Positions 52,697 through 54,117 of a DNA stretch of 64,000 bases are shown here, in pieces (position 1 is the stretch's first letter; each line of letters starts with the position of its first letter). Source of the DNA: an uncultured Acidobacteriota bacterium (GTDB taxonomy: Bacteria > Acidobacteriota > Vicinamibacteria > Vicinamibacterales > 2-12-FULL-66-21); the NCBI GenBank assembly GCA_963836665.1, contig CAWIKL010000001.1:1999818-2063817 (forward strand), given 5' to 3'. The notes under the pieces were generated by a model. The model ran no database searches. It saw nothing but the letters and a program-made list of their open reading frames with translations, and was not told where the DNA came from. The position numbers were made by a program, and so were the translations under genes.

Positions 52697-54117
52697 TGAA
52701 AATCGGCTTCATCTCCCTCGGCTGCCCGAAGAACCTCGTCGACGGCGAGGTGATGCTGGGTATGGCGCAGCAGGCCGGTCACGAGATCACGCCCGAGGCG
52801 CGGGACGCCGACGTCCTGGTGGTCAACACCTGCGCCTTCATCGACAACGCCAAGCAGGAGTCGATCGACGCCATCCTCGAGATGGCGCAGTACAAGCGTG
52901 CGGGCACGGCCTCGCGCCTCGTCGTCACCGGCTGCCTGGCCGAACGCTACCGCGATGAATTGCGCCGGGAGATCCCGGAGATCGACGCGTTGCTCGGGAC
53001 CGGCGAACTGCCGGGCATCGTCGAGGCGCTGGATGGGATGGGCGAGGGGCGAACGGCGAGGGGCGATGGGTCGACGAACGCGAACGCCCAGGTTCGGCCT
53101 CTCACCTTTCACAAGAAGTCCCTCGCGCCTCGCCCCTCGCCCCTCGCCTCCCGCGCGCAACCACCGACGTATCTCTACGACGCTTCGACGCCGCGTCTCC
53201 TGACGACCCCGCGGCACTTCGCCTACGTCAAGGTCGCTGAAGGCTGCGACTACACCTGCGCCTTCTGCATCATCCCGACGCTGCGCGGCGCGTACCGCAG
53301 CCGCGCCCACGACTCGGTGATTGCCGAGGCACGGGCGCTGGCGGCGCGCGGCGTCAAAGAATTGCTGCTGATCTCGCAGGACACGACCTTCTACGGCATC
53401 GATCGACAGGAGCGCGGCGCGCTGGCGAAGCTGCTGCGCGAGCTCAACACCGTCGACGGCCTCGAATGGATCCGCCTGCTCTATCTCTACCCGACGACGA
53501 TCACCGACGACGTCCTCGACGCGATGGCCGAGTGCGAGAAGGTCTGCCGCTACGTCGACCTGCCGCTGCAGCACGCCTCGGCCGAGGTGCTCAAGCGGAT
53601 GCGGCGGCCCGGCAATCGGCGGACCTACGACGCGCTGCTGGCGCGGATCCGCGCGCGCGTCCCTGGCGTCACTCTGAGGACGACCTTCATCGTCGGCTTC
53701 CCGGGCGAGACCGAGGCCGAGTTCGCCGAACTCGAGGCATTCGTCGCGGACACGCGGTTCGACCACATCGGTGTCTTCACCTACTCGCACGAGGAAGGCA
53801 CCCGCGCCCACGCCGCCGCCGACGACGTGCCGGCGGTGACCAAGCGCAAACGCCGCGACGCGATCATGAAGCGGCAGCAGCGCATCGTTGCGACCCGCCA
53901 GCAGGCGATGCTCGGCTCGGAGGTCTGCGTACTCATCGACGGTCCGTCGCCGGAGCACGAACTGGTGATCCACGGACGCCTCGAAGGCCAGGCGCCCGAC
54001 ATCGATCCGCTCGTCTATCTGACTGACAGCGATCCGTCGGCTTACGAGGGTGGTCAGCTCATCCGTGCGCGCGTGGTCGGCGCGCAGGGCTACGATCTGC
54101 TGGTGTCTCCTGTTTGA
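52696..54117 (+). CDS. rimO: ribosomal protein S12 methylthiotransferase RimO (473 aa, with an insert of about 40 aa)
   Basis: [22 protein letters not shown] (MTTase N-domain), radical-SAM [11 protein letters not shown], and a TRAM domain at the C-terminus. The ATG overlaps the asnS stop by 1 nt (TGATG). Confidence 0.9.
53035..53155. repeat. inverted heptamer-repeat element inside rimO: (GGCGAGG-like)x4 at 53041-53068 and (CCTCGCC)x4 at 53121-53148
   Basis: Read directly. GGCGAGGGGCGA (53041-52 and 53055-66) is the exact reverse complement of TCGCCCCTCGCC (53130-41 and 53137-48). Confidence 0.8.

Follow-up and report, generated by a model that had tools for sequence, protein, structure and literature searches.

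Background

Heptanucleotide simple sequence repeats (SSRs) form the commonest class of long SSRs in many bacteria, and an interaction with the polymerase has been proposed to favour slippage by 7 nt (Mrazek et al. 2007, as relayed by PMC4679880). Described prokaryotic cases include GGGAATC in Xanthomonas, GGGGAYT in Nostoc, further cyanobacterial arrays in Calothrix, and TAACTGA in Beggiatoaceae. The GGGAATC arrays of Xanthomonas occur as 70–75 convergent pairs per genome that are able to form a stem-loop, and lie at most 50 bp from stop codons between co-directional genes; the authors of that study remarked on the lack of any detailed literature about heptameric repeats (PMC4692102). Here we analyse a 64,000-nt stretch of DNA from an uncultured Acidobacteriota bacterium of the order Vicinamibacterales (GenBank assembly GCA_963836665.1, contig CAWIKL010000001.1, positions 1,999,818–2,063,817; hereafter the window, numbered from its first letter), in which the gene rimO carries two opposed heptamer arrays within its reading frame. 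An earlier reading of the sequence alone, the original prediction, had taken this element for a palindromic or miniature inverted-repeat transposable element (MITE)-like insertion. We find that it probably belongs, as a translated copy, to a class of heptanucleotide SSR hairpins found throughout the lineage and is not a transposed unit.

Several other described systems place palindromes in or beside genes. Rickettsia palindromic elements (RPEs) form families of about 100–150 bp with a conserved sequence and peptide, inserted whole at many loci (Ogata 2000, 2002, as reported through PMC10969869). Repetitive extragenic palindromes (REPs) are conserved palindromes of 20–40 nt, often bearing a GTAG or CGTC tag, and are mobilised by REP-associated tyrosine transposases (RAYTs) (PMC3733652, PMC3116915). 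Coding palindromes are also known from the mitochondria of Nematomorpha (PMC6649704), and template switching, described for RNA genes, is documented to create, maintain and repair hairpins (PMC8794818). In the papers that we searched, we met nothing comparable for Acidobacteria or Vicinamibacteria.

Results

Anatomy of the heptamer hairpin in rimO

The rimO coding sequence (52696–54117, + strand, 473 amino acids) was assigned from its open reading frame (ORF), its Pfam domains, its match to PDB entry 4jc0 and homologues named RimO. Its ATG overlaps the stop codon of an upstream class-II aminoacyl-tRNA synthetase (aaRS) gene (TGATGA, 52694–52699). The domains comprise UPF0004 (residues 2–101), Radical_SAM (179–349) and TRAM_2 (407–471). 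The best solved relative, T. maritima RimO (4jc0, E 2.8e-95), aligned as two blocks, between which the RimO of the window has 52 residues vs 17 in the structure. The whole imperfect inverted repeat, delimited by its arms and fold (53026–53156), lies wholly within this interdomain linker.

The left, G-rich array (53041–53068, + strand) reads GGCGAGG GGCGAAC GGCGAGG GGCGATG and encodes GEGRTARGDG; the right, C-rich array (53121–53148, + strand) consists of CCTCGCG followed by three copies of CCTCGCC and encodes PRPSPLAS. Both are head-to-tail arrays of 7-nt units with at least three copies, recovered by Tandem Repeats Finder (TRF) as period-7 arrays at 53040–53070 (4.4 copies) and 53120–53148 (4.1 copies, 90% matches). 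The 52 nt that separate them contain a variable spacer (53069–53094, + strand, STNANAQV), 24 nt of which are deleted in the closest relative, L161 (96% protein identity), and the codons of a linker motif, RPLTFHKK (53095–53118, + strand), conserved at the amino-acid level with synonymous variation across Vicinamibacterales. By inverted-repeat search the arms were complementary over 29 nt at 86%, or over 37 nt at 81% when the flanks were included (53026–53062 with 53120–53156). The RNA fold of 53025–53165 reached −80.9 kcal/mol against −60.7 ± 4.4 for shuffled sequences (z −4.6), with none of 200 shuffles equal to it. Allowing at most one mismatch, the arm 12-mer GGCGAGGGGCGA had seven matches in the window vs 1.98 expected, a number reached by none of 100 shuffles, and five of the seven fell inside the rimO element.

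These results bear out much of the original prediction. The units and coordinates of both arrays agreed letter by letter, the encoded insert peptide was as quoted, and the hairpin was recovered both as inverted arms and as a significant fold. The insertion is in frame, in an ORF with the three Pfam domains, and its site is a tolerant interdomain linker between the blocks aligned with 4jc0; distant RimO proteins do not have it. With a unit of 7 nt, slippage by a single unit would indeed frameshift the gene. The description of rimO as an essential-type gene was overstated, the gene being dispensable in E. coli.

The segment between the arms is native linker

We aligned 120 RimO homologues (numbered with P; fetched DNA loci are numbered with L), the closest of which are labelled Vicinamibacterales (Acidobacteriota) by their sources. 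The stretch from LGTGE to HFAY ranged from 49 to 113 residues and always contained [RQ]-P-L-T-F-H-K-K or a variant of it, and the motif P-[LVM]-x-[FL]-[HFY]-[RK] was conserved at the amino-acid level throughout Vicinamibacterales RimO. Its codons varied synonymously among 50 relatives, with Pro as CCG, CCT, CCC or CCA, Leu as CTC, CTG, TTG, CTA or CTT, Phe as TTC or TTT, and Thr varying likewise; L161 already carries two synonymous changes in the motif. The codons TTT CAC AAG AAG, which had been singled out as atypical, thus showed no conservation at the nucleotide level. Relatives that have no arms retain the motif (P0036, ...DVRPLTLYKKPTYLYD; P0065, ...QAQPLRLYKKPTYLYD; also P0087). Because the motif varies synonymously and is kept in arm-less relatives, the rimO spacer is a native piece of linker under selection at the protein level and not the interior of a mobile element.

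To the left of the motif, many relatives carry peptides like D-G-R-W-P-M-A-D, some as 7-residue tandem repeats, and to its right many carry I-G-H-R-T-S-D-I-G-H-R, as follows from translation of a heptamer array and of its reverse complement. An AlphaFold2 model assigned no secondary structure to residues 115–160 of RimO, which include the conserved motif, and scored them below 50 in the predicted local distance difference test (pLDDT); being of moderate quality overall (36 sequences, mean pLDDT 69), it says little on docking of the motif. Between the window and L161, the 159 columns of the variable linker showed 15 mismatches along with 24 gapped positions, vs 36 mismatches in 1260 columns for the remaining gene, so that the heptamer element is the fastest-evolving part of rimO in this comparison.

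Arrays recur at the same site with different units and covarying arms

We compared the window with 161 loci, of which 80 came from genomes and 80 from metagenomes, the last being one further contig. The insert was present in some relatives and missing in others. About 19 rimO genes carried clear inverted tandem-heptamer arrays at the same two positions, and their units differed by lineage: GGGACTC/GGGGCTC (L004), GCGACTC (L003), CGGGACT (L108), GGGATCA (L111), CGGGACC/CGGGATC (L140), TCGGGCT (L141), TCGCGGT (L142), CCGATGG (L082 and L093), GCGATGC (L084/L085) and CGCGGGG (L087). In a neighbour-joining tree the array-bearing genes fell into two large clades, with right-arm remnants in neighbouring lineages and none in basal ones. 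Many close and distant relatives have an intact rimO although one or both arms are missing. The exact motif of the window was found nowhere else in the window or the 161 loci, save at the same site of L161.

The arms changed together while the units turned over. RNAalifold recovered a 12-pair stem between the arrays of 18 array-bearing linkers, on which 85% of cells were paired vs 71.7% in shuffled alignments and 29 cells carried double changes vs 8.0 expected, neither value being reached in 500 shuffles. When the partner was slid by 1–3 columns, pairing fell to 25–59%. These figures come from related sequences, and the structure was derived from the same alignment. In L084/L085, each left GCGATGC faces a right unit that complements GCGAGGC, leaving the same U.C mismatch in every unit; this suggests that one arm homogenises internally first and the other follows. 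The right arm of this pair is more conserved than the remainder of rimO. The comparison of the window with L161 was uninformative on compensatory events, the right arm of L161 being just more degraded.

Length changes between close relatives were of 24 nt (window and L161) and 12 nt (L084/L085), multiples of 3 and not of 7. Arrays were identical in near-identical contigs from different samples (L093, L094 and L095; L126/L127), and the linker had equal length in the protein clusters P0098, P0099, P0101 and P0105. At one locus (L031:10330–10500, four left and eleven right units) the rimO frame changes from 0 to 1 inside the left array. Either genuine slippage or a homopolymer error may lie behind the change, the assembly being long-read-style and the shift lying within G/C runs. 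The core motif was in forward orientation in 120/120 homologues and at all loci, an inverted orientation never being seen in these assembled sequences. Inverting the enclosed segment would leave the rimO ORF open, as is expected anyway in a genome of 66% G+C.

Other linker repeats were seen beside these arrays. In another clade, the rimO linkers of L105, L118, L115 and L033 carry 7-residue repeats to the right of the motif only (GTEHSAP, PGPQDPG, GTADxxx), without a left partner, and the linker of L126/L127 holds three 10-residue repeats (SPGLKTRPTY) with a small palindrome in each. In many relatives a spacer with heptamer arrays separates the aaRS gene from rimO, in place of the stop/start overlap.

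A second translated pair of arrays in truB

TRF and an inverted-repeat scan of the whole window yielded three more period-7 elements besides that in rimO, one in truB and two intergenic. The truB coding sequence (60310–61326, + strand) matches TruB of M. tuberculosis (PDB 1sgv, E 4e-41). Its left array (60634–60661, + strand) reads ATGGACG ATGGGCG ATGGGCG ATGGACG and encodes MDDGRWAMD; its right array (60830–60865, + strand) reads GCCCATC GCCCACC GCCCATC GCTCATC GCGCATC and encodes GPSPTAHRSSRI, both being found by the two scans. The arrays are inverted and 173 nt apart, with conserved TruB core between them (LDRFRG..QTPP.FSAKK...). Since they flank native coding sequence, they cannot be one inserted element. 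In alignment with 1sgv, the left arm coincided with a variable stretch and the right arm with a gap, and the right array is an insertion relative to solved TruB structures.

Both insertions were present in two of the 18 available truB genes (window and L005), in the same loops, and the other 16 had no arrays. The units of L005 (GCGCGAG/ACGTGAG facing CCTCGCG/CCTCGCA) differ from those of the window. In both genes the arms were paired in minimum-free-energy folds, and the whole truB fold was not better than shuffles (z −1.6 for the window and −1.3 for L005). Rotated to GGCGATG, the truB unit of the window differs by one base from that of rimO and matches exactly the unit that ends the left rimO arm. 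The same architecture occurs inside genes where two permissive protein loops lie near each other, namely the linker on both sides of PLTFHKK in RimO and two surface loops in TruB.

Period-7 arrays are abundant across the lineage

We surveyed 1.11 Mb of Vicinamibacterales-like sequence, every locus of which was centred on rimO, and counted 132 arrays at lag 7, compared with 25, 35 and 20 at lags 5, 6 and 8, respectively; the thresholds scale with period, which makes the comparison between lags approximate. Lag-7 arrays numbered seven in 0.72 Mb of loci from other taxa and zero in block-shuffled sequence. Of the 132 arrays, 35 were in rimO linkers and 97 elsewhere, and at least 83 of these 97 were non-coding by a test of ORFs and third-position G+C content (GC3); several of the remaining 14 were ORF-extension artefacts. 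An inverted partner (at least 16/21 identity, within 400 nt) accompanied 76 of the 132 arrays (58%) and 55 of the 97 outside rimO, a direct partner accompanied 27 of the 132, and 18 of 600 random 21-mers (3%) had an inverted partner. Period-7 arrays are therefore abundant in Vicinamibacterales, mostly intergenic, and usually built as two opposed arrays able to pair.

The units were very diverse, with no single dominant unit and no conserved palindrome family among the arrays. Units within one mismatch of each other made up 7.6% of comparisons between loci of one genome vs 3.2% between genomes (p 0.03).

Long, near-perfect arrays of 6–15 units were found at L082:1–106 (CCACGGC), L087:2221–2325 (ACGGTTC), L014:9852–9922 (GCTTACG), L028:9694–9756 (CATGCTT) and L019:9911–9953 (AGGTGCG). 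Several of them lie directly upstream of rimO where it does not overlap the upstream gene. Arrays whose units are related to one another (AGCTGAG/AGCTGCC/CAGCTTT) were found in several genomes about 600–800 nt downstream of the rimO stop codon (L002:12120, L012:12010, L085:4314–4409, L142:2013 and L150:1623), suggesting that a second intergenic site is conserved in position; no array lies there in the window.

No signature of selection on an mRNA stem

We looked for the signature of selection on an mRNA stem in mismatch type, strand stability and Rfam matches, and found none. On the sense strand, arm mismatches comprised 19 G.U and 29 A.C (p 0.19), that is, no excess of G.U. The reverse-complement strand folded more stably in 15/19 rimO linkers (mean difference 7.7 kcal/mol) and with about twice as many G.U pairs, a bias that was not significant in arm-only alignments. 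Rfam at gathering threshold gave zero matches anywhere in the window, and permissive scanning of the element returned nothing but generic microRNA-precursor hairpin matches, far below threshold, over 53009–53191.

Other repeats in the window

Both intergenic period-7 elements of the window follow stop codons, by 2 and 18 nt, between co-directional genes. The first (46862–46985) is a hairpin of CAATCGC/GCGATTG-type heptamers (fold −61.3 kcal/mol, z −7.6) that begins 2 nt past the stop of the gene at 45250–46860 and is followed by no T-run. The second (50445–50512), with 7/14-nt repeats (TGATCGC; CATCGCGAATCCCG), lies between the genes at 49417–50427 and 50539–51396, 18 nt past the stop, and its fold was not significant (z −1.1).

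A hairpin after the pnp stop codon (GACGGGGTGAGGC / GCCTCGCCCCGTC, 63905–63938, no T-run after it) had been said to share its motif with the rimO arm. The shared sequence, GCCTCGCCCC, has two matches in the window, and 10 of 100 shuffles also reach two; we rejected the link between the rimO right arm and this terminator-like hairpin, the 10-nt overlap being at chance level. TRF also reported, in the region downstream of nusA, a 9-nt tandem repeat, AGCCGGCCA, in about eight copies (56286–56379) and CGC-rich tandem repeats of 3/18 nt (56725–56791).

Discussion

A translated heptanucleotide hairpin, probably shaped by slippage

We favour the reading in which the rimO element belongs to the heptanucleotide SSR hairpins that are spread through this lineage and happens to lie where a protein can tolerate it. 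The arms are translated in frame, to judge by the conserved reading frame and the conserved motif between them. Replication slippage would expand, contract and homogenise the arrays, and inside a gene only net changes in multiples of 3 would survive, as the 24-nt and 12-nt indels between close relatives suggest. Template switching or intrastrand correction on DNA may create the arms and keep them complementary, and such copying of one arm onto the other could act without selection. The protein would tolerate some 30–36 additional disordered residues, with a left part rich in Gly, Arg and Asp and a right part rich in Pro, Ser and Arg. A stem of about 29 bp would have to be unwound by the ribosome, and nothing indicates that RimO chemistry depends on it. 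The original prediction had left it open whether the palindrome landed in the linker or expanded within it; of the two, expansion is the better reading, and a palindrome that landed whole is not supported.

Several points weigh against this reading. Arm covariation at the level of the order is equally expected from selection on a functional stem, and the two explanations are inseparable here. The arms remain about 85% complementary in lineages in which synonymous sites must be saturated, so that some active force is needed, for which template switching is a putative candidate. Nor does the reading account for the preference for period 7. The weak likeness of units within a genome could hint at copying between loci. 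Finally, residues 115–160 of RimO are consistent with a disordered linker, for which the mediocre AlphaFold2 model is weak evidence.

Alternative explanations

The stem could instead be a selected cis-acting structure, acting in mRNA, as an antisense RNA, as a DNA cruciform or as a protein-binding site, with the heptamers only its raw material; in mRNA we considered a translational pause between the two Fe-S domains and protection from, or targeting by, RNase. The conserved position with covarying arms over 18 lineages, the very stable rimO fold, the recurrence of the architecture at identical truB loops in two genomes with different units, and the L084/L085 right arm, better conserved than the rest of its gene, would all fit such a role. 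On the sense strand, however, G.U mismatches do not outnumber A.C ones, in 15 of 19 linkers it is the antisense fold that is more stable, and no Rfam family matches. Many relatives also keep rimO intact without one or both arms, 16 of 18 truB genes have no arrays, and whole truB folds do no better than shuffles in either genome (z −1.6 and −1.3). We regard a selected stem as possible and rather unlikely.

We are more doubtful still of a dedicated heptamer-stem system in Vicinamibacterales, in which 7-nt arrays that pair and covary are placed around particular segments by some machinery or in answer to some selective need. Candidates for it would be a nucleic-acid-binding protein that reads in 7-nt steps, a processing nuclease, or a peculiarity of replication or repair. 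If such a system were real, the translated rimO and truB stems would be functional cis-elements conserved order-wide by structure and not by sequence.

Insertion of a MITE-like or RPE-like palindromic element in frame as one unit, or in a variant the copying of arrays between loci, is highly improbable. The arms do resemble terminal inverted repeats, Rickettsia offers a precedent for coding palindromes that keep the frame (PMC10969869), a single base separates the rimO unit of this genome from its truB unit, and unit sharing within genomes is enriched (p 0.03), though too weakly to be taken as a sign of mobility. Yet the interior of the rimO element is native and under protein-level selection, 173 nt of conserved enzyme core lie between the truB arms, and a single site carries different units in different lineages. 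The flanks GCGCTGGATGGGAT / CTCCCGCGC prolong the stem by complementary bases and form no direct repeat, so there is no target-site duplication at the rimO element, and no second copy of the element was found in the window or the 161 loci beyond the orthologous site of L161. Thus, in the 64 kb of this genome, the many copies, the interior of element DNA and the target-site duplication that mark a MITE were all missing. The original prediction had itself named two findings that would speak against a MITE-like element, a linker shared at the amino-acid level by orthologs from distant taxa without the nucleotide repeat, or a motif not found elsewhere in the genome, and by these, over the window and the loci compared, the MITE-like reading fails.

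Least probable of all is a contingency locus, in which gain or loss of a 7-nt unit switches rimO (and truB) by frameshift and makes ribosome or tRNA modification phase-variable, or alternatively an intragenic inverton: a one-unit change would shift the frame, L031 changes frame inside its left array and an inverted spacer would keep rimO open, but each arm has just about four imperfect units, arrays are identical in near-identical contigs (L093/L094/L095 and L126/L127), P0098, P0099, P0101 and P0105 share one linker length, indels between close relatives (24 and 12 nt) are multiples of 3 and not of 7, L031 comes from a long-read-style assembly with the shift in G/C runs, and the core motif is forward in all 120 homologues.

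Implications

What appeared to be a one-off MITE in rimO becomes a lineage-wide phenomenon in an abundant, barely studied soil order, with about 100 period-7 arrays per megabase, mostly hairpins, some of them within loops of conserved enzymes. The rimO arrays form a natural series for stem covariation in which slippage with template switching seriously rivals selection, and this bears on the use of covariation as proof of functional RNA structure. SSR turnover yields disordered, compositionally biased linker peptides, such as the 7-residue repeats DGRYPMA and IGHRTSD, in housekeeping proteins. In metagenome-assembled genomes built from long reads, the arrays are a likely source of frameshift artefacts and of mis-annotation. 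Should the stems turn out to have a function, they would represent a new type of translated cis-element.

Comparison with known systems

The closest likeness is to the heptanucleotide SSRs described above. As in the account available through PMC4679880, the arrays here are tandem, of about four 7-nt units, exceed neighbouring periods, and are spread over the genome and mostly intergenic. As in Xanthomonas (PMC4692102), they often lie near stop codons between co-directional genes and form convergent stem-loop pairs. The excess of period 7, the intergenic placement near stops and the convergent pairs that characterise such SSRs were all found here, and some units (CGGGATC, GGGATCA) resemble the GGGNATC type. 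Unlike the SSRs of Xanthomonas and Nostoc, however, ours have no dominant unit, the unit varying by locus and lineage; a dominant unit, such as GGGAATC or TAACTGA, is a trait of the described examples and not of the SSR class overall. Since many of the units here are not G-tract units, a G-quadruplex cannot be the common denominator. Also unlike those SSRs, pairs here enclose native coding sequence within the reading frames of housekeeping genes, their position persists through an order even as the unit turns over, and the host is an acidobacterium.

The likeness to the other systems is more partial. As with the RPE of Rickettsia (Ogata 2000, 2002, as far as PMC10969869 conveys), a palindrome is translated in frame at a fold-compatible site of a conserved gene, and the frame, the linker position and the pLDDT below 50 all agree with an in-frame insertion at a tolerant site. 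In contrast to RPEs, the elements here lack a conserved sequence, have tandem heptamers for arms and enclose host DNA; no family sequence or peptide is shared between unrelated genes, rimO and truB having in common only a similar 7-nt unit. REPs and REPINs are likewise short, hairpin-forming repeats, mostly extragenic and directly downstream of genes, but here SSR arrays that vary in sequence make up the arms. The coding palindromes of Nematomorpha mitochondria (PMC6649704) also have inverted repeats in genes with both arms translated and function kept; their arms are long perfect repeats encoding conserved regions, whereas those here are short heptamer arrays in variable loops beside the conserved part. 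Template switches (PMC8794818) offer a DNA-level route to nearby, perfect reverse-complement copies and to multi-base 'compensatory' change without selection, and may have acted here in protein-coding genes as they do in the RNA genes for which they were described. Set against all of these, what stands out in this lineage is the translated, positionally conserved and covarying pairs of arrays around native coding sequence in rimO and truB.

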